In this document: piece after piece, positions 2,894 to 21,184 of the stretch
How the letters are laid out: each line of letters opens with the position of its first letter
Position numbering within the stretch: position 1 is the stretch's first letter
Assembly: GCA_044869275.1 (NCBI GenBank)
Contig: JBIOXB010000130.1
Location: 1-64,000, forward strand
From: a bacterium
GTDB lineage: Bacteria; Zhuqueibacterota; Zhuqueibacteria; Zhuqueibacterales; Zhuqueibacteraceae
Reading direction: 5' to 3'
Length of the DNA: 64,000 bases
Notes under the pieces: model-generated
What the model was told of the DNA's origin: nothing
Database searches by the model: none
What the model saw: the letters and a program-made list of their open reading frames with translations, nothing else
Position numbers and translations under genes: made by a program

Positions 2894-2996
2894 AGCCCGG
2901 TTGCGTTTGGCAATCCTTCCTTGCAGGAAAGTATTTAAGTCTTTATCTTGGTTTCATGAGGTTTCGTCGTTGCCGGAGGTTCTCATCTGGAGCTTT

Positions 2997-5900
2997 ATGA
3001 CTCGAAATGCACAACCCTTTTTCGCGTTTTCTATGCTTGATCGAATGATTCTGCGCTTCTTGTTTTTCGCCCTTTTAAATGTAACCGGGAGCGCGTTCGC
3101 GCGCAATCAAAAACTGAAATTCGAGCGTCTCTCCCTCGAGCACGGCCTGTCGCAAAGCGTGGTCACGTGCATCGTGCAAGATCGCCTGGGCTTTATGTGG
3201 TTTGGCACGATGGACGGCCTAAATAAATACGACGGCTATGCCTTCACCGTCTTCAAGCACGATCCGCTGGATTCGAGCTCTCTCTCAAGCAATCATATCA
3301 CGGCGCTGTACGAAGATGCTGCTGGCACGCTGTGGATCGGCACGCGCGAAGGCTTGCATCGTTTCGACCGTGTGCGCGGAAGATTCGTGCGCTACCAACA
3401 CAACCCCAACGACGCTTTCAGCTTGAGCGATCAAGCGATCACGGCCATGATTTCCGGCAAGGACCCACATCGCCTCTGGGTGGGAACGGCGGGAGGCGGG
3501 CTGAATCTGCTGGATACGCAAACCGGCAGATGTATAACATACCAGACCGACCCCCAGGCGCCGGCGAGTTTGCCCGGCAATCATGTGCAGGCGCTTTGTT
3601 TGGATCGCACTGGCGCATTGTGGATTGGCACCTGGAGCGGTTTGGCAAAGCTCGAGCAGCTTTCCGAAGATGGCCGCTCGGCGCGCTTCACGAGTTTCAA
3701 ACACGACCCGAAACTGCCAAACAGTTTGAGCAGGAATACGATTTGGGCGGTGCACGAGGACTCCCGCGACGGCCGGACGCTGTGGGTCACCACGTTCGGT
3801 GGCGGCGTCAATCGCTTCGACCGCGCGACCGGACAATTTAAAGTCTATCGCCATCAAGCCGAGGAAGAATTGAGCTTGAGCTATGACGTGGTGCGGCCGA
3901 TTTGTGAAGATCGCGAGGGCACGCTGTGGTTTGGCACGGGCACTGGGCTCAATCGTTATGATCGCGAGCACGATCACTTTCTTCATTATAGCCACGAATC
4001 TTCAAATCCGCAAAGCTTGAGCAACAACGATGTTTGGTCGATTTTTGAAGATCGTTCCGGCGTGCTATGGGTTGGGACATACGGCGGGGGTTTGAGCAAA
4101 TTCAGCAAGGCGGGTGAAAAGTTCGAGCACTATGCCCACGACCCGGGCGATCCGCACAGCCTGGGGCATAACATGGTGATGTCCATTGCCGAAGATGAGC
4201 GCGGCAGAATGTGGATCGGCACGGGCGGAGGCGGGCTTTACCAAATGGTTGCGCCGGCGGAAAATGAGAGGCATCGGCATGCCGTTCAGTTCAAGCGTTA
4301 TGCACATGAACCGGCGAATCCCCACAGTCTGTTGAGCGACGGTGTGGCGGCGATTTGCGCCGGTCATTATCGCGGCCAGCCGGCGTTGTGGGTGGGAACC
4401 GGTGATGGTTTGCACCGCATGACGGCGGAAGGGCGTTTTGTGCATTATCAATACGAGAGGGAGAATCCTCACAGCCTGGGCGGCCAGGGCGTCAGTGTCA
4501 TTTTTGAATCGCCGGAAACCGGCACGTTGTGGGTGGGCACCGGTGCCGGGGGACTGAACCGGTTTACGACCGATCTGCATGCAACCAATGGCAGTCGCGA
4601 TGGAACGCAGGAGGGATTCGTGCGTTACCGCCATGATCCGGCGAATGCCAACAGCCTGAGCAGTAATGCCATTCACGCACTCGCTGAATCGCGAACCGGC
4701 GGCGATTTGTATTTATGGATTGGAACTGCGGAAGGCCTGAATCGCTTGCACCAAACGACGGGAGAAATCAAGCGCTATCGCCATCGCGCAAACGATGCCA
4801 CGAGTCTCAGCAACGATCAAGTGCTGGCAATTTACGCCGATGCAGACAGCGCAGGGGGAACACTCTGGGTTGGCACCGCCGGCGGCGGCTTGAATTTGCT
4901 TGACGTGCGGCGGGAAACGTTCACGAGCTTCGTTGAAAAGGACGGGCTGCCGAACGGCGTAATTTACGGGATTCTCGGCGATGACCGCGGCCATCTATGG
5001 TTGAGTACGAACAATGGCTTGTCGAAATTTGCAAAAGCCACGCGCGGGTTCCGCAATTATAGCACGGCGGACGGCCTGCAAAGCCGCGAGTTTAATCAGG
5101 GCGGCTATTTTCGCAACCGCCGCGGCGAGATGTTTTTCGGCGGCATCAACGGCTTCAATCGTTTTCATCCCGAACACATCGAAGACAATCCACAGGCGCC
5201 GCTCGTCGTGCTGACTTCTTTCAAAAAGCTTGACAAAGAGGCCAAACTCGACACCGCGATCAGCATGATCAAGCACATCAGATTGTCTTATCGGGATTAT
5301 TTCATCGCCTTCGCTTTCGCGGCGCTGGAATATACGCATCCGGAGAAGAATCAATACGCCTACAAGCTCGAGGGTTTTGATGAAGACTGGGTGTACTGCG
5401 ACACACGGCGCTACGCGAGCTACACCAATCTCGCGGGCGGGCGTTATGTCTTCCGCGTGAAAGGGGCAAACAGCGACGGCGTGTGGAACGCGGAGGGTTT
5501 GGCGGTTCATCTCGTGGTGACGCCGCCAGTCTGGAAAACGTGGTGGTTTCTCGCGAGCACGGCGGTTTTATTTACCGGCGGGGGCTTTTGGTTTCATCGC
5601 CGGCGCCTGCGCTTGCGGCTGGAAAAAGCCCGCATGGCCAATGAACTGCAAGCGGCGCACGACATGCAAATGCGCCTGATGCCGGCGCGCGCCCCGCAGA
5701 TTCCGGCCTTTGACATTGCCGGTGTCTGCCGGCCCGCCGAGGAAGTCGGCGGCGATTTTTTCGATTATGTCTGGCTGGACGAAAACCAGACCAAGCTCGG
5801 CATTGTGCTGGTCGATGTCAGCGACAAGGCTATCGCCGGCGCGATGACGGCCGTGCTCACCAGCGGCATGATCAGCAGTGAAGTGGCGACATTCCGCTCA

Positions 5901-6374
5901 CCGCGCTTGCTCTTGCGGCGCATCAACAAAACCATGTATCGAAAAACCGACAGCCATGTCTTCACCGCGATGTCGTTTGCGGCTTTGGATGTTGTTCAAA
6001 AAATTTTGACTTTCGCGAATGCGGGCCAAACCGAGCCCTTATTATTGCGCCATCACCAGATCAAGTATTTGCAAATCGAGGGCATGCGCCTGCCCCTGGG
6101 CTTGCAAAAACATGTGGAATACAATGAAGCGACGCTCGCGCTGCAACCGGGAGATTTGTTGGTGTTTTATACTGACGGCTTGACCGATGCGATGAATGCC
6201 GAGCAAGAATCGTTCGGCCACGAACGCTTGGAGAGCACCTTGCGCCAGTATTCCGGCGAAGCAAGTGCAAAAGTTATCGTCGAGAGCTTGCTGCACGAAG
6301 TGGCAAAATTCACCGGTGCCGTGCGACAGTACGATGATGTCACGGTGGTGGTGGTGAAGGTGCAAAGCGCGTAA
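2997..6374 (+). CDS. Membrane sensor phosphatase: periplasmic two-component-regulator beta-propellers, Y_Y_Y domain, TM helix and SpoIIE/PP2C domain
   Basis: Repeated 'SLS.N.V..I.ED..G.LW.GT..GL.R' units, YAYKLEG..YTNL..GRY.FRVK, TM 'WKTWWF', then EVGGDFFD / DVSDK / FYTDGLTDA / DDVT PP2C motifs. Start placed at the GGAG-preceded ATG 2997 (uncertain). Confidence 0.9.
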   Translation: MTRNAQPFFAFSMLDRMILRFLFFALLNVTGSAFARNQKLKFERLSLEHGLSQSVVTCIVQDRLGFMWFGTMDGLNKYDGYAFTVFKHDPLDSSSLSSNHITALYEDAAGTLWIGTREGLHRFDRVRGRFVRYQHNPNDAFSLSDQAITAMISGKDPHRLWVGTAGGGLNLLDTQTGRCITYQTDPQAPASLPGNHVQALCLDRTGALWIGTWSGLAKLEQLSEDGRSARFTSFKHDPKLPNSLSRNTIWAVHEDSRDGRTLWVTTFGGGVNRFDRATGQFKVYRHQAEEELSLSYDVVRPICEDREGTLWFGTGTGLNRYDREHDHFLHYSHESSNPQSLSNNDVWSIFEDRSGVLWVGTYGGGLSKFSKAGEKFEHYAHDPGDPHSLGHNMVMSIAEDERGRMWIGTGGGGLYQMVAPAENERHRHAVQFKRYAHEPANPHSLLSDGVAAICAGHYRGQPALWVGTGDGLHRMTAEGRFVHYQYERENPHSLGGQGVSVIFESPETGTLWVGTGAGGLNRFTTDLHATNGSRDGTQEGFVRYRHDPANANSLSSNAIHALAESRTGGDLYLWIGTAEGLNRLHQTTGEIKRYRHRANDATSLSNDQVLAIYADADSAGGTLWVGTAGGGLNLLDVRRETFTSFVEKDGLPNGVIYGILGDDRGHLWLSTNNGLSKFAKATRGFRNYSTADGLQSREFNQGGYFRNRRGEMFFGGINGFNRFHPEHIEDNPQAPLVVLTSFKKLDKEAKLDTAISMIKHIRLSYRDYFIAFAFAALEYTHPEKNQYAYKLEGFDEDWVYCDTRRYASYTNLAGGRYVFRVKGANSDGVWNAEGLAVHLVVTPPVWKTWWFLASTAVLFTGGGFWFHRRRLRLRLEKARMANELQAAHDMQMRLMPARAPQIPAFDIAGVCRPAEEVGGDFFDYVWLDENQTKLGIVLVDVSDKAIAGAMTAVLTSGMISSEVATFRSPRLLLRRINKTMYRKTDSHVFTAMSFAALDVVQKILTFANAGQTEPLLLRHHQIKYLQIEGMRLPLGLQKHVEYNEATLALQPGDLLVFYTDGLTDAMNAEQESFGHERLESTLRQYSGEASAKVIVESLLHEVAKFTGAVRQYDDVTVVVVKVQSA

Positions 6375-12010: not shown

Positions 12011-12589
12011 TCAGAAAAAGCTGAGTTGCAAGGGATAATTCACACCCGCTAAAAATCCGCTCTGCTCCTTGTTGAGAAATCCCCAGAACGCCAGCCTTTT
12101 GATAGACAGACCTAACAAAATCACCGGCAGCAAATCATTATTGCCGTATTGTTCCCGTACCGCGCCCAGGCCCCCGCTGAAGCGCAGCCAGGGCTCGCTG
12201 TAGAGTTTGCGCGTATCGCGGTACAATTCGCGATAGCCGAGGTACAGGCTCTGCGTTTGCCGCAGGAGCGAGTCTTGCAGCCAGAAATTCCTGGCATACG
12301 TGTTGGTGGTGCGGTCCAATGCCGCCAGCAATGTGTCTTTGGCGGCCATTTTCTTTTGCGCGGCTTCCAATTCGATTTTGAGTGAATCCTGGAGGAATTG
12401 CGAACGCTGCACGCTTTCGCGCGAGAGTGCCAGAAAATCCGCACCGTCGATTTTAATCTGATGGTTCTTCCCCAGCGGCCGCACGTATTCCAGGCGCGGC
12501 TGGGCAGCCCCTGGAACAAATCCGGCGAGCAGAAATAAAAGTGCCGGCACCACGAGCATTGCAGTGCGATGATTGAGAGGTTGCGACAT
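12011..12589 (-). CDS. Exported coiled-coil protein with C-terminal amphipathic beta-strands ending in Phe (putative outer-membrane anchor)
   Basis: GGAGG RBS, signal peptide (..VPGAA|Q), heptad region, C-terminus LRFSGGLGAV..VILLGLSI..AFWGFL..GFLAGVNY..FF. Confidence 0.75.
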   Translation of the reverse strand: MSQPLNHRTAMLVVPALLFLLAGFVPGAAQPRLEYVRPLGKNHQIKIDGADFLALSRESVQRSQFLQDSLKIELEAAQKKMAAKDTLLAALDRTTNTYARNFWLQDSLLRQTQSLYLGYRELYRDTRKLYSEPWLRFSGGLGAVREQYGNNDLLPVILLGLSIKRLAFWGFLNKEQSGFLAGVNYPLQLSFF

Positions 12590-12639: not shown

Positions 12640-13071
12640 TCAATTGCCGCCGCCGATGACTTTGTTATATTCTTCAAAAAGCTCGTCCGCGCTCATGTTG
12701 TTCAACTGCTCGCGCCGCTGCTGCAACTGTTGGCTTTTCTCCGCTTCAATCTCGAGAATCTCCTTCATGTAGCGCGCGCGTTCGCGTTTCAAGAGCTCTT
12801 CGGCCTCGCGGATTTCTTCTTTGGCGACGTCGTACTTTTCCTGTAATTCTTTCAAACGTTTTTCCTGCTCCTGCAATTCCCGCTCGCGCCGCTTGAGCTC
12901 TTCCGTCAATTTGCGCTTGCGATACGATTGAAACAATGAGAAGCCCAGCACCAGGCCCAGCGCGGAAACCGCGAAAATGATGCCGCGCACGTTCAACAGC
13001 CGAAATTGGTGCAGGAAGAACAAGACGACGATCAAGAAAACGACTGCGAATGCTATGGTAAATTCATCCAT
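12640..13071 (-). CDS. Inner-membrane protein with two N-terminal TM helices and a long charged coiled coil
   Basis: GGAGG RBS before ATG 13071, followed by an E/K/R/Q-rich heptad region of about 90 aa. Confidence 0.8.
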   Translation of the reverse strand: MDEFTIAFAVVFLIVVLFFLHQFRLLNVRGIIFAVSALGLVLGFSLFQSYRKRKLTEELKRRERELQEQEKRLKELQEKYDVAKEEIREAEELLKRERARYMKEILEIEAEKSQQLQQRREQLNNMSADELFEEYNKVIGGGN

Positions 13072-13093: not shown

Positions 13094-13648
13094 CTAATTT
13101 TTGCGCCTTTTTTCCAAAGCTTGAATCGCATGATGCACCGGCTCAGAGCCGACGCCAACGAATATGCCGCTGAGCGTAATCGCCAGCCAGGGGTTGTTCT
13201 TGAAAAGAGCGTTGAGGAACTCGAATTTCAAATCAAGCTCCTGGATGGCGATGGTGACCAAATTGATGTTGGTCAAAAAACAAAAGAGGATTCCGAGCAG
13301 CACCGCAAACGTGCGGTTGATCGCGACCATCACCGCGTTGCGCACCAAGTCCCCGCCGATAATCGGCACTTTACCGGAATGCCCGGCTTTGTCTTCGACA
13401 CGCACTTTGCGAATTTGAAACAGTAAGCCGGAAACGTCGAGAAAATGATTCCACAGGCGCGAGTAGGCGTATTGCTCGAATTTTTCCTGCAGACGCTGCG
13501 CGCGCCGCGTCCAATACTTGTGCAGATCGAAGCGCCACTCCGCGTAGTTCCAGCCGGCGTTCAAGATTTCCAGCATGCGCTCGATGGTCAAAGCGAGCAG
13601 CAGGGTCAGCATGTAAATATAAGTGACTTGCAGGATCACGTCCATCAT
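13094..13648 (-). CDS. Holin-like membrane protein
   Basis: Three hydrophobic segments with motifs 'LALTIERMLE' and 'SGIFVGVGSEPVHHAI', shared with the N-terminus of the upstream amidase. GAGGTG RBS. Confidence 0.75.
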   Translation of the reverse strand: MMDVILQVTYIYMLTLLLALTIERMLEILNAGWNYAEWRFDLHKYWTRRAQRLQEKFEQYAYSRLWNHFLDVSGLLFQIRKVRVEDKAGHSGKVPIIGGDLVRNAVMVAINRTFAVLLGILFCFLTNINLVTIAIQELDLKFEFLNALFKNNPWLAITLSGIFVGVGSEPVHHAIQALEKRRKN

Positions 13649-13656
13649 ATTTCACC

Positions 13657-15093
13657 TCACGCCTTGACAAAGAGATAAGGTTTCTGCCGGTACAACTCCA
13701 GTTCTTCCCGGGCGGTTGCCGAGTTCGACCACAGCGTGTGATAATGTTGAATCAGCTTTCTGAATTCCACCTGGGGGAAGTTGGAGCCGGGGCAGCGCGT
13801 GTTCGTCAATTCACGGTGCGGAACAATGCTTTGGCGCCAATTGAGGGGAATGCCATACAGCTGGCTCCACAGCGCCACCACGCGGGCGGCGGCGTGCAGT
13901 TGCTCGTCGGTGGGTTTGGGCTCGCCGAAGCGCCCGTTCACGTTCGCAAAAGGAATTCGTGGATCGGTTTCAAAATTGCCGTTGAGCGACAGTCCGAGCG
14001 AATGCAGATTGTGTCCCGCCACGTGGCTGCCATAGCGGTCCCAGCGGCAAAAGGCGTGAATCGATCCGTCTTTCAAAATCACGCAGTGATAGCCGGTGAG
14101 CCAGCCCTTGTCCTTGATGATTCTCACGACGTCGGCAAACGAAGTGTCGCTGTGCATCGAGGTATGATGATACACGATGAGATTCGGATCCGCGGGCCGG
14201 CGATGGCGATATTGCAGCACTTCGCGGTCCACACCGCCGAGGTAAGGCACGTTTATTTCCGCGGCGCGCGTGACCGGCACGGCGGCTGCGCCCACGCCGC
14301 GATCCGCAGCCGCGACGATCGCCACGGCGGGCAGCGCCTCCAGAGCGGCGGCGGATTTTTCCGGCACAATCGCCACGGCCGTTTCCGAAGCGGCCACCTC
14401 GCTTTTAAGCGTTTGGAATTTGCGCTGCGTGAGATAGTTGATGAGAAAATGCACCGGCTGCGAGCCGGCACCGATCAAAATGCCGCTGAAAAACTGATCG
14501 AGGCGATCAAGCATGGGCAGGGGGAAATTGAACTCAAAAAGCTTTTTGAAAACTCCCAGTTCGGCATAAAAGCACATGCCCACGCCGATGAACAGGCCAA
14601 ACGTTTGCATCCAAAACGTGCGATGTGTTTCTTCGTAAGGGCGCTGGGTGGCCGGCTCCACCAGGATCATGGCCTCGGAAAATTTCTCGGTTTGCTCCAA
14701 TTTGGTGGTATCGATGGTGCGCGTGCGCGACAGGCGCATTTCGAGCTCGGCCTTTTCGAGAGGCGACAGCGAATCGCCCTCACGCTCGAGGCGACTCTGC
14801 GTTTCCGCCAGCTCTTCGGCGGCGCGGTCCTGATGATCGGCGGTCACGCGCGCGACGAGATGGTCGACTTGTTGTTCCACCGTCACCCGCGCCTTGGAGT
14901 AAGGCGCGTCGCCCCGAAAAAAGAAATGGTTGAGCAGGCGATTGACGAATTGCAAAGCCCGCTCGACCGTGAAGGAAAGCCCTAGCGCCACCGTCAACAC
15001 TGCCAACAATGGCTGCAACAGCACGGTTTGTGGTGCGGCTTTGGCCAGCGTGTCCGCCGCTACCGCTTGCAGGGGGAGAGAGGGATCCATCAT
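13657..15093 (-). CDS. Holin-like membrane domain fused to an Amidase_2 (T7-lysozyme/PGRP-type) N-acetylmuramoyl-L-alanine amidase
   Basis: N-terminal 'LSFTVERALQ..SGILIGAGSQPVHFLI'. C-terminal IVYHHT, GYHCVI..DG.I, GSHVAGHN..SLGLSLNGNF, PTDEQL and PHREL..TRCPG, with the His/His/Cys zinc ligands present. Confidence 0.88.
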   Translation of the reverse strand: MMDPSLPLQAVAADTLAKAAPQTVLLQPLLAVLTVALGLSFTVERALQFVNRLLNHFFFRGDAPYSKARVTVEQQVDHLVARVTADHQDRAAEELAETQSRLEREGDSLSPLEKAELEMRLSRTRTIDTTKLEQTEKFSEAMILVEPATQRPYEETHRTFWMQTFGLFIGVGMCFYAELGVFKKLFEFNFPLPMLDRLDQFFSGILIGAGSQPVHFLINYLTQRKFQTLKSEVAASETAVAIVPEKSAAALEALPAVAIVAAADRGVGAAAVPVTRAAEINVPYLGGVDREVLQYRHRRPADPNLIVYHHTSMHSDTSFADVVRIIKDKGWLTGYHCVILKDGSIHAFCRWDRYGSHVAGHNLHSLGLSLNGNFETDPRIPFANVNGRFGEPKPTDEQLHAAARVVALWSQLYGIPLNWRQSIVPHRELTNTRCPGSNFPQVEFRKLIQHYHTLWSNSATAREELELYRQKPYLFVKA

Positions 15094-15434
15094 TCTTCCT
15101 TGCGAATGCTTGCGATCACAACAATGTTATGTGGTAAAGATTGGTTGTCACTGTGTCTTGCGAGGATTGAAAGTAGACAAAACTGTCAATGCTCCAGCAC
15201 TGCCCCACGGGGGCGGGGGTGCAGTTTGGAGGTTGCCAGGACCAGCAATGCGAATGTGAACGGCGATAACGGGAAGGCAGATGACGAAGCCCGAAAAAAT
15301 GCGTGAGAATGGTCACGGAGAATGACTGGAATCCCAACTGCCTTCCTCCTCAAATTGCAAGAAGATGCGCGAAATGTTTTTGAAATGCAAGTACAACGTT
15401 GTATACAGTATTTGTGGTGCGAAGGAGGTGAGGT

Positions 15435-15519: not shown

Positions 15520-17631
15520 CTACTTCGTTTTGAACTCATACACGCCGTCCCAATTCGTTGGCGGGGGGGAGGCGATAAAATCGAAGCAACGTTGAATGTA
15601 AAGGCGCGTAGGGCCGTCGCTGGGAAAATAGCGCAGGATGCTCTGGAATTCTTTCAGCGCGCGCGGCCATTGCCGTTGCTTGTAAAGCTCCAAGCCGCGC
15701 GTGTAGGTATCGACGAGCAAATCCTGTTCAATGCCGGGCAGCGGGTTCATGTCGCGCAGCTCGTAAATTTTGACGGGCTTGCTTTTGCCTTTCACGCGCA
15801 CCAGATCGAGCTCGCGCACCTGCGCGCGCTTTTTCGCCTGGCGATAAGTCGATTCGGAAATGATAATGGCGGTGTTGTATTGTTTGTTCGCGCCTTCGAG
15901 ACGTGCGCCGAGATTCACTTCGTCGCCGATGGCGGTGTAATCGAACCTTTGCAACGCGCCGAGATTGCCGACGATCATCGCGCCGGTGTTGATACCGATG
16001 CCGATTTGAAAATAATCCTGCGCCAGCGCCGACCAGCTTTTTTGCAGCTCGCGCAATTGCTCGATCATGGCGCAGGCGGTTTCACAGGCTTTTTCCGCAT
16101 GATTGGGAAAGACATAGGGCGCCCCGAACAACGCCACGATCGCATCGCCGACGAATTTGTCCAGCGTGCCCTGGTTTTTGAAAATGACTTCCGTCATCAT
16201 AGTCAGATATTCATTCAAGCGCTGCACCACGACTTCGGGCTTGTGTTTTTCGCAAAACGTGGTGAAGCCGCGAATATCGCTGAACAACACCGTGAGCCAG
16301 CGTTTTTCGCCGCCGAATTCCGGGTTTTGGCCGGAAGCGAGAATGCTATTGACCACGCTGGCGGACACGTATTGCTCAAAAATGCGTTTCGTGCGATAGC
16401 GCTCGCGCCGTTCAACCATCAGCACCGGCGTGATATTGCCGATGTAGCTCAAAATGATGGCGGCAGCCGGGCCCACCACCGCGATCCAAAGCTCCAGCCA
16501 GGAAAAGAGCAATACGGACGTAAACAAGAGCACGAGCATTTGTCCAAAGGTCAAGATCAAGCCCACCGCCGTGCGCACGCGCAGCACAAAAATCATGGTG
16601 AGCACGGCGTTCAATGCAATGATGAGAAAATCGACACTGAAGGGCACCCGTGCGATAAAATCGCCATACATTAACGTGCTGAGCGCGTTGGCGTGCACTT
16701 CCACTCCCGGCAGTTTGCGTTGCTGGCCGCTGCCGGAAAAAAACGGCGTGAGTTTGTTGTCTTGCAGCTCTTCCGCGGTCGACCCGATAAAAACGATCTT
16801 ATCCTTGAAAACGCCGCCGGGCAACAAATCTTTGTCGAAACTATCCGTATCGAGCTCGGCGTCGGGCAATTGAAAATCCTTCCCGTCCAAGACCGCAGCG
16901 AGAGAGTAGGTGGGGTAAGTCTTTTCCGGGCCGCGATAATTGATCAAGAAGCTGTTGGCGTCGTAATAGGGAAGAGCTCTGCCGTTAAATTGCAGGCGTT
17001 CGCCCGGGACGAGCTCCAGGCGCTGGCCGTGGAGCCGGGCATAAGCCCGCAGTGCAAGGGGAAAGTGCTGCCGCTCGTCAATGGCGACGTACAACAAATA
17101 GCGCCGCACGAAACCGTCCTGATCCTCATCGATATTGACCACGGCCCAGTCCGGGCTGGCCTGCAGCAGCGGCGGAATCGGCTTGCTCAACGTCATGCTG
17201 AGAGAGCCGCCGCGGACGTTGACGGTTTCCATCTTGCCCGCAAAAATTACCCGACCCGAGCGCGCCGCCGCTTGCGCCAGCGTCGTGTCGGCACCCGGAT
17301 CGTTGGACGAGGCCTCGGTAAACAGCACGTCGAAGACGATCAAACGCGCCTGGGCGCGCATGAGCTTGTCGATCAGCTGGGCAAAGAGCGGGCGGGGAAA
17401 AGGCCAGCGTTGGGCGAGGTCGTCGAAGGATTGTTGGTCGATGGCCACGATGACGATGTCATCATTCGTCACCGGGAGGCTGCCGCGCAACGCGAAGCGC
17501 ACGTCGTAAGATTTCAGCTCGAGATTTTCAAGGCTCGCGGTGGAACCGAGCCAGACGGCAACGAGCGCGGCCGCCCAGGTGATCGCGCCGCCCAATGTCC
17601 ATTTGTTGGCCAGCGGTTGTTTGAGATTCAC
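15520..17631 (-). CDS. CHASE2-domain class III adenylate cyclase
   Basis: CHASE2 motifs (IVIVAID..S, WPFPR, D.DGFVRR, PGVEVHAN), three TM helices, cyclase motifs LFSDIRGFT, DKFVGDA and YTAIGDEVNLGARLEG (Lys/Thr indicate ATP specificity), and a TPR-like tail. Confidence 0.93.
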   Translation of the reverse strand: MNLKQPLANKWTLGGAITWAAALVAVWLGSTASLENLELKSYDVRFALRGSLPVTNDDIVIVAIDQQSFDDLAQRWPFPRPLFAQLIDKLMRAQARLIVFDVLFTEASSNDPGADTTLAQAAARSGRVIFAGKMETVNVRGGSLSMTLSKPIPPLLQASPDWAVVNIDEDQDGFVRRYLLYVAIDERQHFPLALRAYARLHGQRLELVPGERLQFNGRALPYYDANSFLINYRGPEKTYPTYSLAAVLDGKDFQLPDAELDTDSFDKDLLPGGVFKDKIVFIGSTAEELQDNKLTPFFSGSGQQRKLPGVEVHANALSTLMYGDFIARVPFSVDFLIIALNAVLTMIFVLRVRTAVGLILTFGQMLVLLFTSVLLFSWLELWIAVVGPAAAIILSYIGNITPVLMVERRERYRTKRIFEQYVSASVVNSILASGQNPEFGGEKRWLTVLFSDIRGFTTFCEKHKPEVVVQRLNEYLTMMTEVIFKNQGTLDKFVGDAIVALFGAPYVFPNHAEKACETACAMIEQLRELQKSWSALAQDYFQIGIGINTGAMIVGNLGALQRFDYTAIGDEVNLGARLEGANKQYNTAIIISESTYRQAKKRAQVRELDLVRVKGKSKPVKIYELRDMNPLPGIEQDLLVDTYTRGLELYKQRQWPRALKEFQSILRYFPSDGPTRLYIQRCFDFIASPPPTNWDGVYEFKTK

Positions 17632-17739: not shown

Positions 17740-20466
17740 TCAAAAGCGAAACTCATAGTGCGCGCGCACGAAGGCGTTGGTGAAGGAGGAATTCTGCACA
17801 AGTGTTGCGGGCACACCGGGTGTCGCGAAATTTCCGCCTTTATCGTTGTAGCCCAGCACGCCGAAGTCGAGCACAATATCGTGCTGGTTCGCCAGCAAAA
17901 CGCCGCCGCCGAGTTGTACCCCGATTTGGTTGTAAGAAATGATGCCGCTGGTGACGCCGTTCGTGCCCGTGCTCCCCGAGGCGCCGATATAGCGTACCCC
18001 GGCGTACGTGCGCAGTTGCGGCTTGGGAAAGCGATATTCGGCCTGCGCATTGAGCGCGTTATATTTGAACGGCGATTGCAAGCCGCCGGCGCGATTGCTA
18101 TTAGTGGAGAACATCAAAGTCGTGATCAAGGGAACGTTGAAGCGCGTGCGCACGGTGAGGGACTGCAGATTGGAGACGACGTCGCTCGCCACGAGGGGCT
18201 GGCCCAGATTGTTGATGCGCTGGTTGGCAAAACGATCCACGCGCGACGAGCTGGTGACGCCGAGCGAAACCGTGTGCGCCAAATTCAGTGCGCGAAAATC
18301 CTGATTGAGGAGAAGGGAAAAATCGCGGGTGCGGTTATCTTCCCGGCGATCGAGCGCAATGGGGCCATTGGGTGTGATGACCTGCGTCGTATCGATTATG
18401 CCATTGTTGCGATTATGATTGCGAAAATTGAAATTCAGCGACGGCCAATCCGGCGACCAATTGACCGCGAAGCCGAACTGGATGGTATTGAGCGCCGTGC
18501 TGGGATTGCTGTCGATGGTATTGAAATGATCGCGATAGCGCTCGAAACCCAGGGTGAAGAACAGGCGATTCTGCAGCAGGCGGAAATTGTCGTTGATAAA
18601 AAAACCACGAATATCGTTGCGCAGAAAGGTGTGGCCAAAGGAAATGTACTGCGCACCGATTTGTTTAAAGCCGAAATTGACAAAATGATTGAAGAAATTG
18701 AGCTGCGTGCCGAATTGATACGCCAGACCGGTGCCGCCGCTGGGGTCGAGCGGGGCCAGACTTTCATTGATGATCAGGAGATTTTTGAAACTCGCCGGAT
18801 CAAAGGGCAAATCGACGCCGTAGGAGGTATCGATTTGTCCTTTGCGGAGAGGGGGCAGACTGATGTTGTTCGCCATCAGCGACTGCGCCACCGCGGCTTT
18901 GATCTGCACGCGATTGCGGCTGAAGGACATGCTCAAATCCGCGCCGGCAACCAGATTGCCGCGCGGGGTCAAGCCGGCGGTGCTGACTTTGATCGAATTG
19001 GTGTCGTCCTGCGCTTTCATCAACAGCAAGCCGATTTGAAAACTTTTGCCGCCGAAGCTTGGACGCACCGCCCACAAGGATTGGCTGAAGGTGCCGGTTT
19101 GCAGTAGTATGCCCCCTGCCAGAATTGGAGCGATCTCGCGCACGGTTTGGCCGGTGACAAAATCCAAATTCACAATGCCGGTGTTCAAGCTCGCTTGCAC
19201 GCCGCGTACGCGCCTGCCCCACAACACCAATTCATTCAAATAAGGCGTGGCGTCGCCGAGCGTGAATTTCAACCACGGCAAACCTGCCGACAACACAAAG
19301 CGATGGCGCGGCTGGAAATTGCCGTCTTCCAATGAAGTCAAATTCACCGCGGCATCATAGGCGAGCTGGCCGTATTGCCCGGTAAGATTTCCCCCGATGA
19401 CGTTGTTGTCGAAGCTCGTACCGTTGAATTTTTCGTGCTGCAGATCAACGTAAGCCACACCGGTGGCGACGTCGTTGCGCTGTTGTTCTTCACCTTCCTG
19501 TTGGGAAGTGTCACCGCTGACTTTGAAACGCCAGTCGGCGGGGGTTACGCTCCGCCCGCTGGCGTCTTTGGCTCGAATCGACACACGGTATTCGCCCGGT
19601 TTGAGCGTGCCGGGATTCAATGAAACCAAAAAAGCCGACACTTCGGCGCGCGCAGTGACCTCGCGGCCATTGAGCATGATGCGCACCGACGCAGGTGCGA
19701 TCGACACCGCCGGATCAAACGAGGCGGCGACCGTCGCCTCGGCCGGCGCCACCGTGCTCAAAGGCTCGGGGCTGAGAATGAGAATCGGCGTTTGCGGAAC
19801 TGTTGTTTCCGCCATGGGCGGAGACGAAATATTTTGCGCACCGCTGTCACTTTTCGCCAGCGGCCCTTCCATCTGCCGCAGCTTCTCGAGCAATTGCGGT
19901 GAAATATCTTCGGGCGGTTCGGGCTGGGGCTTTGTCCCCGGTTCATTTGCAGGCGGCGAAACCGGCTGCGTGCCTGAAGCTGGAGAAGGTGCGGCCGGCG
20001 CCGCCGGTTTCGGCTGGGAGGGCACCGCCTCTTTCGAAGCCGTGATCAGAACTTCAAAAGGCTGGCCGAAGGGGTTGCGGCTGGGCATGCTCATGATCGC
20101 TTGATCGCTGAACAGCGCGAGCAGAAAGTATTGTACGCTGGGCGGCCGCACGGAGCTGCCCGGAATTTCGCCCACGTAGCCGCGGCTGGCACGGCGCAAA
20201 TCCACGAAACGAAAATTGGTTTCACTGGCGTGCTTGTAATACAGCCGCAAATAAACCAGTGCGCGGCCGGGCGTAAACAAGTCCGCTTCGATGCGAATCG
20301 CCTGCCCTTGCTCGCCAAAAGTGATGGGCACGTGATCGAATTGCGGCGCCGCGTTGGAGGTGGCCTCTCCCTCGCCAGTTTTCGTGCCCGCGACGGCACC
20401 CGTGGTGCACCTGCAATAAACCAGCACGAAAAGCAGCAGCCCGAGCCCTCGCCTACTGAGCGTCAT
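17740..20466 (-). CDS. Large outer-membrane beta-barrel protein with N-terminal Ig-like domains and a Pro-rich linker
   Basis: Signal peptide, two beta-sandwich-like segments, about 550 aa of amphipathic strands and a C-terminal 'AHYEFRF' beta-signal. Confidence 0.8.
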   Translation of the reverse strand: MTLSRRGLGLLLFVLVYCRCTTGAVAGTKTGEGEATSNAAPQFDHVPITFGEQGQAIRIEADLFTPGRALVYLRLYYKHASETNFRFVDLRRASRGYVGEIPGSSVRPPSVQYFLLALFSDQAIMSMPSRNPFGQPFEVLITASKEAVPSQPKPAAPAAPSPASGTQPVSPPANEPGTKPQPEPPEDISPQLLEKLRQMEGPLAKSDSGAQNISSPPMAETTVPQTPILILSPEPLSTVAPAEATVAASFDPAVSIAPASVRIMLNGREVTARAEVSAFLVSLNPGTLKPGEYRVSIRAKDASGRSVTPADWRFKVSGDTSQQEGEEQQRNDVATGVAYVDLQHEKFNGTSFDNNVIGGNLTGQYGQLAYDAAVNLTSLEDGNFQPRHRFVLSAGLPWLKFTLGDATPYLNELVLWGRRVRGVQASLNTGIVNLDFVTGQTVREIAPILAGGILLQTGTFSQSLWAVRPSFGGKSFQIGLLLMKAQDDTNSIKVSTAGLTPRGNLVAGADLSMSFSRNRVQIKAAVAQSLMANNISLPPLRKGQIDTSYGVDLPFDPASFKNLLIINESLAPLDPSGGTGLAYQFGTQLNFFNHFVNFGFKQIGAQYISFGHTFLRNDIRGFFINDNFRLLQNRLFFTLGFERYRDHFNTIDSNPSTALNTIQFGFAVNWSPDWPSLNFNFRNHNRNNGIIDTTQVITPNGPIALDRREDNRTRDFSLLLNQDFRALNLAHTVSLGVTSSSRVDRFANQRINNLGQPLVASDVVSNLQSLTVRTRFNVPLITTLMFSTNSNRAGGLQSPFKYNALNAQAEYRFPKPQLRTYAGVRYIGASGSTGTNGVTSGIISYNQIGVQLGGGVLLANQHDIVLDFGVLGYNDKGGNFATPGVPATLVQNSSFTNAFVRAHYEFRF

Positions 20467-20509: not shown

Positions 20510-21184
20510 TCAATACTCCAGCTTCAATTTCTTCTTCTGTCCCTGGGCGTCTTGAAACTCGATTTCAAAACTGCCGCCCTCACCCTGATCATCGCCCCAG
20601 GTCGGAACTTCATTGGGATTGCTCGGCCGCGACACCGGCGGCGTTTTATCGTTCATCATGCCGGTGTACCCGGCATTTACCAGCACCTTGCCGAGTTTGT
20701 TCGCCAACTCCACCGCGCCCTCCAAACAGAAAACGATGGTTCCGCCTTTGGGATCGATCAACAAATAGAAGACCGTGCCTTTCACCGCCGCGACGCCGGA
20801 AGGAGTTTCAATCCGGAACGGCGTAGAGCTGCGTGTGATTTTGGCCCAAAGCTGGCCGAATTCCAGTTTGAGAGTTTTGAGAATGCTGCCCTCTTCACGC
20901 TCGCCGGCGATGCTCACCTTGGAATTGGCGCGCACCTTGAGAATGGATTTGTCGTCAGTGAAAACCATGGCGGCGGAAGATTCTTCGCCGGTGCGCACCA
21001 CGTTGCCGCTGTGCAGCCGCGTGCCGCGACCGGCTTTTTCAGCCGCTTGCGCTGCTGCCCGATTCACGCGCACGTCGCCATTGGCTTTCAAGACCACGGC
21101 GATGTCTTTGGCGGCTTGGGAAAAACAAACGCTGCAGCAAAACAGGTTAAGGAGAATCGGAATCGTAAAACTCTTGCGAAGCAT
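20510..21184 (-). CDS. Exported FecR-domain protein
   Basis: Signal peptide, then 'G.RL.SG..VRTG..S.A...F.D.S..KV..NS', 'IETPSGVAAVKGT.F' and 'CLEGAVE'. Confidence 0.88.
   Translation of the reverse strand: MLRKSFTIPILLNLFCCSVCFSQAAKDIAVVLKANGDVRVNRAAAQAAEKAGRGTRLHSGNVVRTGEESSAAMVFTDDKSILKVRANSKVSIAGEREEGSILKTLKLEFGQLWAKITRSSTPFRIETPSGVAAVKGTVFYLLIDPKGGTIVFCLEGAVELANKLGKVLVNAGYTGMMNDKTPPVSRPSNPNEVPTWGDDQGEGGSFEIEFQDAQGQKKKLKLEY

Follow-up and report, generated by a model that had tools for sequence, protein, structure and literature searches.

The fusion protein and its unfused paralog

The stretch of DNA analysed here (the window) is 64,000 nucleotides long and comes from a member of the Zhuqueibacteraceae (assembly GCA_044869275.1, contig JBIOXB010000130.1, positions 1 to 64,000); the subject of this work is a four-gene cassette on its minus strand, headed by a gene that joins a membrane domain to an amidase. 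Positions 13094-15093 contain exactly two open reading frames (ORFs), both on the minus strand. Gene 1 (P0001; 13657..15093), delimited as an ORF and by its translation, encodes a 478-aa protein in which a linker joins a membrane domain to an Amidase_2 domain. The membrane domain (residues ~21-225; 14419..15033, minus strand) was placed by invariant columns and by hhalign to the small paralog. The linker (residues ~226-280; 14254..14418, minus strand) is rich in Ala, Pro, Val and Glu and was placed by low predicted local distance difference test (pLDDT) values and variable alignment columns. The remainder (residues 281-478 plus the stop codon; 13657..14253, minus strand) is an N-acetylmuramoyl-L-alanine amidase domain of the T7 lysozyme/peptidoglycan recognition protein (PGRP) type, placed by PF01510, PHROG and PDB matches. 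Gene 2 (P0002; 13094..13648, minus strand) begins 8 bases past the gene 1 stop codon and encodes a 184-aa unfused paralog of the membrane domain, recognised by BLASTP, hhalign and an AlphaFold2 (AF2) model. Gene 3 (P0003 family; 12640..13071) and gene 4 (P0004 from M19; 12011..12589) follow on the same strand.

In gene 1 the membrane domain runs from helix 1, which ends at the invariant E44-R45, through a helical insert of ~115 aa to helix 2, a short loop and helix 3, which holds I207-G208-x-G210-S211-x-P213-V214-H215. The AF2 model of the whole fusion was only moderate (pLDDT 63.5) and was not used for the membrane part; pLDDT was below 50 over residues 224-277, and the linker is of low complexity, weakly conserved and variable in alignment A1. 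The AF2 model of gene 2 is all-helical (pLDDT 84.8, predicted template modelling score 0.72). BLASTP aligned residues 163-225 of P0001 with 112-182 of P0002 at 28% identity (E = 1e-6), a match that spans the last two helices only. Profile comparison by hhalign extended it: 15 fused N-domains against 10 small paralogs gave a probability of 97.6% (E = 3.3e-12), and 43 fused N-domains (alignment A4) against 40 small paralogs (alignment A3) gave 99.4% (E = 4.6e-21) over 187 aligned columns, from helix 1 and its ER motif through the insert and helix 2 to helix 3 with its G.GS.PVH motif. On these profiles, gene 2 and the N-domain of gene 1 are paralogs over the whole domain, with a similarity far beyond chance. 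Invariant columns common to the fused and small families are the Glu-Arg directly after helix 1 and the Gly and His of the helix-3 G-x-G-S-x-P-V-H; within the 40 small paralogs, E23, R24, W46, R103, G167 and H172 are invariant.

The initial annotation had described a duplicated membrane domain with a soluble insert, one copy being fused to an amidase and the other lying unfused beside it. The motif strings on which it relied (LSFTVERALQ / LALTIERMLE, FGLFIGVGMCF / FAVLLGILFCF and SGILIGAGSQPVHFLI / SGIFVGVGSEPVHHAI) are all present in the translations, and each element of that description was borne out by the alignments above and by the amidase matches and gene order given below. The insert between helices 1 and 2 is real and helical, with ~85 aa in the small paralog as compared with ~115 aa in the fused form. 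A short fused form of 325-328 aa, found in three related genomes (L023:6270-8201, L024:6118-8135 and L025:6226-7203), has its insert shrunk to ~20 aa, so that its three helices lie within ~115 aa and the domain is holin-sized; the gene 3 alongside it is a single-helix variant starting MKWWK. When the fused N-domain and the small paralog were modelled as a complex, the score was 0.54 and the best of three controls scored 0.00; the runs shared at least 68% of contacts with a partner pLDDT of at least 64. Of 157 solved complexes, 116 reached the mark set for this score, as did 2 of 215 mismatched pairs, and scores of at most 0.60 were held by only 18 of the 157 solved complexes together with both mismatched pairs that passed. 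The prediction thus weakly supports pairing of the two proteins as a hetero-oligomer.

The C-terminal domain of gene 1 belongs to a well-described enzyme family. PF01510 (Amidase_2) matched residues 301-436 of P0001 with 63.5 bits (E = 3.3e-17), above the cut-off of 26, over profile positions 3-130 of 131, and the domain also matched PHROG amidase and endolysin families. In the PDB it matched a lytic N-acetylmuramoyl-L-alanine amidase (6srt/6ssc; E = 1e-13), T7 lysozyme (6e-7) and also PGRPs. H309/H310, H426 and C434 are invariant across 15 diverse homologs and fall in the 'yhht' and 'h...cpg' blocks aligned with the solved amidase; we take this His/His/Cys set to be zinc ligands, by analogy with T7 lysozyme. 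Judged by its profile score, its conserved metal-site residues and its nearest solved relatives, the amidase looks active. T7 lysozyme and PGRPs share this domain family and the conserved His/His/Cys positions but are soluble, whereas gene 1 adds an N-terminal three-helix membrane domain and a linker of ~55 aa.

The fusion recurs well beyond the window. PF01510 was present in all 20 homologs recovered with residues 1-240 of P0001. A membrane-domain profile run against 1.84 billion representatives found 1139 clusters at E <=0.001, 169 at 1e-10 and 61 at 1e-30, and a local hidden Markov model (HMM) search identified the amidase in 76 of 148 representatives fetched from it; the other 72 were fragments, unfused forms, one subtilase fusion (P0149) and one tetratricopeptide repeat (TPR) fusion (P0116). 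In P0149 (916 aa) a Peptidase_S8 subtilase is N-terminal and the helix 2-3 hairpin C-terminal; in P0116 (313 aa) TPR repeats lie C-terminal to the membrane domain. A search with the small-family profile among longer proteins found no other fusion of the small-family domain, which is weak evidence that there are none.

Genes 3 and 4, cassette order and chromosomal context

The protein of gene 3, of ~143 aa when started at the ATG of 'MDEF' as in its homologs, has two hydrophobic helices and, after them, a highly charged coiled coil. PHROG 739 ('Rz-like spanin') was matched by 15 of 27 members of its family (best E = 4.6e-7), the window's own protein among those scanned giving an E-value of 1.3e-4, and five further Rz-like PHROGs were matched by smaller numbers. 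Most members have two helices; the single-helix variant opens with MKWWK and then a hydrophobic helix, a pattern consistent with a type II signal anchor and thus a periplasmic position of the coil. From these sequence features gene 3 likely resembles an inner-membrane spanin (i-spanin), the side of the membrane that holds the coil being only predicted. Gene 4 (192 aa), recognised by its sequence pattern, takes fourth place in 33 of 49 loci. Its N-terminus is signal-peptide-like and its middle part helical or coiled-coil, and a Gly-rich C-terminal region of ~50 aa contains short hydrophobic stretches and ends in ...LSFF. Members of its family are ~175-190 aa long, carry a signal peptidase I-like signal ending A-x-A-Q and in many cases have a Cys a few residues later. 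Protein-atlas neighbours of gene 4 with viral taxa (score 0.96) are an unconfirmed lead, since Pfam and PHROG scans of 32 gene 4 members returned coiled-coil noise only and no DUF6808.

The 49 loci come from a pattern-plus-tblastn scan of one genome per species, followed by HMM-based gene calling. All four genes were found in the same order and on the same strand in 33 of them: fused amidase, small paralog, membrane and coiled-coil protein, and secreted coiled-coil protein with a Gly-rich C-terminus. Among the 47 loci with a fused gene, the small paralog comes next in 46, and the exceptional locus itself ends 474 bases after the fused gene. For seven of the 16 incomplete loci the contig ends within 1 kb of the last gene found, and six are gammaproteobacterial loci in which gene 3 or gene 4 was missing at the threshold used. 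Four of these six (L069, L070, L071 and L077) have a gap of ~550-690 bases at the place expected for gene 3. Of the remaining incomplete loci, L068 has genes 1 and 2 only, and L076 is a distant homolog. In a Sedimenticolaceae metagenome-assembled genome (L075:5986-8359) gene 1 is unfused, with 195 aa and no amidase, and is followed by genes 2 to 4; the membrane pair and genes 3 and 4 do not, therefore, depend on the fused enzyme for their persistence.

The cassette spans diderm phyla, its hosts being Gemmatimonadota, KSB1, Calditrichota, Acidobacteriota/Aminicenantes, Fibrobacterota, Myxococcota, Desulfobacterota, Nitrospirota (Nitrospiraceae) and Gammaproteobacteria. Cultured carriers are three Oceanospirillales, Thalassolituus pacificus, T. 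alkanivorans and Parathalassolituus penaei, in which the cassette can be tested. Within the window's own class the fused gene occurs in 12 of 41 genomes, and the cassette is therefore patchy there. Upstream neighbours common to the Thalassolituus group (an ABC transporter and an ornithine-type decarboxylase) indicate vertical inheritance in that group.

The context of the cassette is chromosomal and not that of a prophage. Its neighbours in the window encode a Kdo transferase, an MFS-HEAT protein, a CHASE2 adenylate cyclase, a FecR-like protein and an OmpA-family protein; tRNA genes are absent from the window, and 11 large ORFs scanned around the cassette gave no phage family. The flanks of 22 loci (102 ORFs scanned against Pfam) hold unrelated housekeeping genes, and a phage neighbour was found in only one of the 22, a tail-sheath-like gene ~800 bases downstream of a Gemmatimonadales cassette (L055:9758-11332). 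These observations bear on a further reading of membrane proteins that adjoin a muralytic enzyme, namely an ordinary prophage holin/antiholin-endolysin pair, as the initial annotation implied. The PHROG lysis-category matches of the amidase and of gene 3 would agree with such a pair, but the flanks just described, together with the failure of the phage records searched (see below) to yield a homolog of the domain, leave it barely credible.

Other features of the window lie close to the cassette. A CHASE2 adenylate/guanylate cyclase gene is just upstream in the window (15520-17631, minus strand) and in the same-genus locus L004, and a gene for a Crp-type cyclic-nucleotide-binding regulator with a NUDIX hydrolase gene is just upstream in two other families of the class (L016:4267-5459 and L019:4509-5695). 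These genes hint at cyclic-nucleotide control of the cassette, and coincidence is possible. The 426-base gap between the cyclase gene and gene 1 contains a promoter-like site 5' of gene 1 (15124..15151, minus strand), which comes from a consensus scan only, with 9 of 12 matches and no evidence of function. Upstream of the cyclase gene and directly downstream of a FecR-domain gene (20510-21184, minus strand), all on one strand, 17740-20466 (minus strand) encodes a protein of 908 aa that starts with a signal-peptide-like sequence, has no Pfam family and ends in ...YEFRF, a C-terminus resembling that of an outer-membrane barrel. Further away, 2901-6374 (plus strand) encodes a large sensor phosphatase unrelated to the cassette, of 1157 aa with Reg_prop beta-propeller repeats, Y_Y_Y and a C-terminal SpoIIE-type phosphatase.

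Relatives and predicted topology of the membrane domain

We found no named family for the membrane domain. Neither P0001 nor P0002 matched a Pfam or PHROG holin family at E <=1, and scans of all four cassette proteins against Pfam, PHROGs, NCBIfam and PADLOC gave no family for the membrane domain, gene 2 included. Sequence-profile searches of the PDB with the membrane domain returned nothing, and the protein atlas placed P0002 in unnamed clusters only. The initial annotation had likened the helix-3 motif to a signature of phage holin-like proteins and proposed a profile comparison; the two copies of the domain did match each other strongly, as given above, but the likeness to holins found no counterpart in these holin families or in the phage records searched. 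Open-access full-text literature likewise yielded no description of the domain or of the cassette, and both appear to be undescribed in the literature searched and in all libraries scanned.

Charge distribution and distant relatives were informative on topology. Positive charges are concentrated before helix 2 and after helix 3, with few in the N-tail or in the loop that joins helices 2 and 3. Lys plus Arg counts for the N-tail, that loop and the 15 residues following helix 3 are 0.2, 1.5 and 5.0 in the small family and 0.42, 0.74 and 2.9 in the fused family. Distant relatives matched end to end by the profile (E ~1e-12) bear extra N-terminal sequence directly before helix 1, which, judged by eye, resembles a cleavable signal peptide in nine stand-alone relatives (P0146, P0157, P0160, P0165, P0167-P0169, P0173 and P0181) and a signal anchor in others. 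The same N-terminal feature is found in stand-alone relatives of 167-174 aa in three genomes of the window's family (L026:6211-6735, L027:5098-5622 and L028:6446-6949). Signal peptide-like sequence before helix 1 would make the start of that helix periplasmic. The domain is accordingly predicted to be N-out/C-in, such that helix 1 passes from periplasm to cytoplasm, the insert lies in the cytoplasm, and helices 2 and 3 pair as a hairpin ahead of the basic tail; this topology would leave the gene 1 amidase on the cytoplasmic side, away from its substrate.

A cytoplasmic amidase need not be destined for the sacculus. Amidase_2 includes cytoplasmic members such as AmpD, and the predicted C-in topology would suit a membrane-anchored enzyme acting on soluble or lipid-linked muropeptides in AmpD-like recycling or precursor control, which never meets the sacculus and for which the membrane domain is an anchor or sensor. 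We consider this distinctly unlikely. The invariant metal-site set includes Cys434, and the nearest solved structures are those of T7 lysozyme, PGRPs and the lytic amidase rather than that of AmpD; the proposal also leaves the obligatory secreted gene 4 and the spanin-like gene 3 unexplained, and the L075 variant keeps the rest of the cassette without the amidase.

The predicted topology, in which an outside N-terminus is followed by a large helical loop in the cytoplasm, the helix 2-3 hairpin and an inside C-terminus, is shared with TolQ/ExbB/MotA, as are long helices reaching into the cytoplasm, and TolQ/ExbB chains filled ranks 1, 3, 6, 8, 9 and 10 when the gene 2 model was compared with the PDB by Foldseek. 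The paralogs could on this basis form the pentamer-like ring of an ion-driven stator, with gene 3 as a TolR/TolA-like component and gene 4 as the outer-membrane end. These Foldseek matches were not significant, however (E >=3.5, TM-score 0.16-0.24, root-mean-square deviation ~19 A), and nothing in the PDB was matched at E <=0.001. An independent all-against-all structural search gave generic helical proteins with a top Z of 7.2, within the noise range for helical models, and TolQ/ExbB were absent from its best 50 rows, families outside those rows not being excluded. Pfam found no MotA_ExbB (PF01618) match in 83 scanned members, and the empty PDB profile searches agree. With neither a significant sequence match nor a significant fold match to the membrane domain, we give a stator only a slight chance.

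A proposed envelope-breaching module and its counterparts

Our leading reading, which we hold tentatively and at a little under an even chance, is that the four-gene cassette is a cellular module that breaches the envelope in the manner of a lysis cassette or a type 10 secretion system; its output could be either programmed lysis or local release as in type 10 secretion. Holin-like behaviour of the membrane domain is plausible from its predicted topology and the context of the cassette, not from homology. In such a module the inner membrane would hold an assembly of the fused protein with its unfused paralog, which would serve as partner or timer, and the amidase would be tethered on the cytoplasmic side at rest. 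A trigger would then cause either a membrane lesion or a flip of helix 3, which is weakly hydrophobic and rich in Gly and Ser, and by either route the tethered amidase would gain local access to peptidoglycan. The i-spanin-like protein of gene 3 and the secreted, possibly outer-membrane-anchored protein of gene 4 would bridge the periplasm and take care of the outer membrane.

Several observations weigh against an envelope-breaching module. Among Pfam families, the sole holin match in the 40 small paralogs was weak and confined to one member (Phage_holin_2_3, E = 0.061), and the 43 fused N-domains gave no recurrent family. A tblastn search of both domain copies against 50,697 phage records found nothing, and IMG/VR viral contigs, searched with two peptide patterns per query only, gave no relative of the domain. 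Its insert of 85-115 aa makes the domain far larger than typical holins. The Rz-like matches of gene 3 lie within the coiled coil and are accompanied by noise, with integrase families matched by 6 and tape-measure families by 2 of the 27 members. The gene 4 proteins have no lipobox, the mark of an o-spanin lipoprotein, and their anchoring in the outer membrane, possible as it is, is read from sequence pattern only. No recurrent cargo, regulator or mobile-element gene was found in the 102 flanking ORFs of the 22 loci. With a mean Kyte-Doolittle value of 0.94-1.08, helix 3 is less hydrophobic than the other two helices (1.2-1.7), and if this marginal helix does not span the membrane, the amidase would be periplasmic and no holin would be needed. 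Finally, long-term vertical retention, as in the Thalassolituus synteny, would fit a housekeeping role.

The last two points lead to the most serious competing explanation, a housekeeping trans-envelope complex for peptidoglycan remodelling, in which helix 3 lies at the membrane surface, the amidase is periplasmic and membrane-tethered, and the paralog and the coiled-coil proteins of genes 3 and 4 serve to position or activate this enzyme. Such a complex might act in the separation of daughter cells, in constriction of the outer membrane or in clearing space for an envelope structure, and amidase control by FtsEX-EnvC or by Tol-Pal offers a comparison. A periplasmic amidase would need no special export to reach its substrate, and the chromosomal, non-mobile context without recurrent mobile-element or phage neighbours, the conservation of the cassette across phyla and the stable synteny in the Thalassolituus group all suit a function of this kind. 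Against it, the fused protein has no signal peptide and a basic region follows helix 3 in both families, no recurrent division or envelope-biogenesis gene lies beside the cassette, and the presence of the fused gene in just 12 of the 41 class genomes is a poor fit to an essential role. We regard a housekeeping complex as unlikely; were it correct, the cassette would represent a new membrane-tethered system of amidase control.

An envelope-breaching module remains the reading that we pursue, and its most specific form would be a widespread, phage-independent machine for controlled self-breaching of the diderm envelope, in which the pore-forming subunit of a holin-like family carries its own amidase and works with a paralogous timer, an i-spanin-like protein and a non-lipoprotein 'OMP-type o-spanin' (OMP, outer-membrane protein). 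Taken with all of these parts the proposal is somewhat unlikely. A survey of spanins raises the last of them in stating that an outer-membrane protein 'could act as an o-spanin' (PMC6139136), and gene 4 would be a candidate for this hypothesised type. If the leading reading is right, holin-endolysin-spanin logic would also exist as a stable cellular module in at least nine diderm phyla, most of them uncultured, and would not be only a phage invention occasionally borrowed for type 10 secretion. The membrane domain would found a new holin-like family, with the 1139 representative clusters counted above, and as a natural holin-enzyme fusion it would constrain models of how holins move endolysins. 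The cassette would also offer a way to approach programmed lysis, or the release of vesicles or DNA, in environmental bacteria.

Among known systems, the lambda S-R-Rz-Rz1 cassette offers the same gene order: membrane protein or proteins with a muralytic enzyme, an inner-membrane coiled-coil protein and an exported partner. The class I holin S105 of lambda is described as having three transmembrane domains (TMDs) in an N-out/C-in arrangement (PMC10865782), as predicted, together with a basic cytoplasmic tail, for the domain studied here; the Rz-like PHROG matches of gene 3 extend the likeness, and the two related membrane proteins recall a holin/antiholin pair. The cassette differs from that of lambda in that its membrane domain has no homology to any holin family, is fused to the enzyme and contains the long insert, its second membrane protein is a separate paralogous gene and not the product of a dual start, its gene 4 protein is not a small lipoprotein, and it is not a phage cassette. 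A natural fusion of holin to endolysin has been described in the TpeE family of Clostridium sporogenes, for which C-terminal flipping has been proposed to carry the enzyme across (PMC9527704). TpeE resembles gene 1 in that an N-terminal holin-type membrane segment is fused to a lytic enzyme; as described there, however, it has one short TMD and an amphipathic helix in a Gram-positive host, whereas the domain of gene 1 has three helices, a paralogous partner and a diderm-specific downstream gene pair.

A further parallel is the type 10 secretion operon chiWXYZ of Serratia, which is described as chromosomal and as encoding a holin, a peptidoglycan hydrolase and two spanins (PMC13284979). Type 10 secretion operons adjoin their cargo (for example chitinase or toxins), whereas the cassette has no recurrent cargo nearby, though cargo could be encoded elsewhere, and its enzyme is an Amidase_2 domain fused to the membrane domain. 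By gene layout, ChiWXYZ and the cassette are nonetheless alike: both are chromosomal four-gene cassettes with a matching functional order, and ChiWXYZ, from its description, is put to use by the cell itself.

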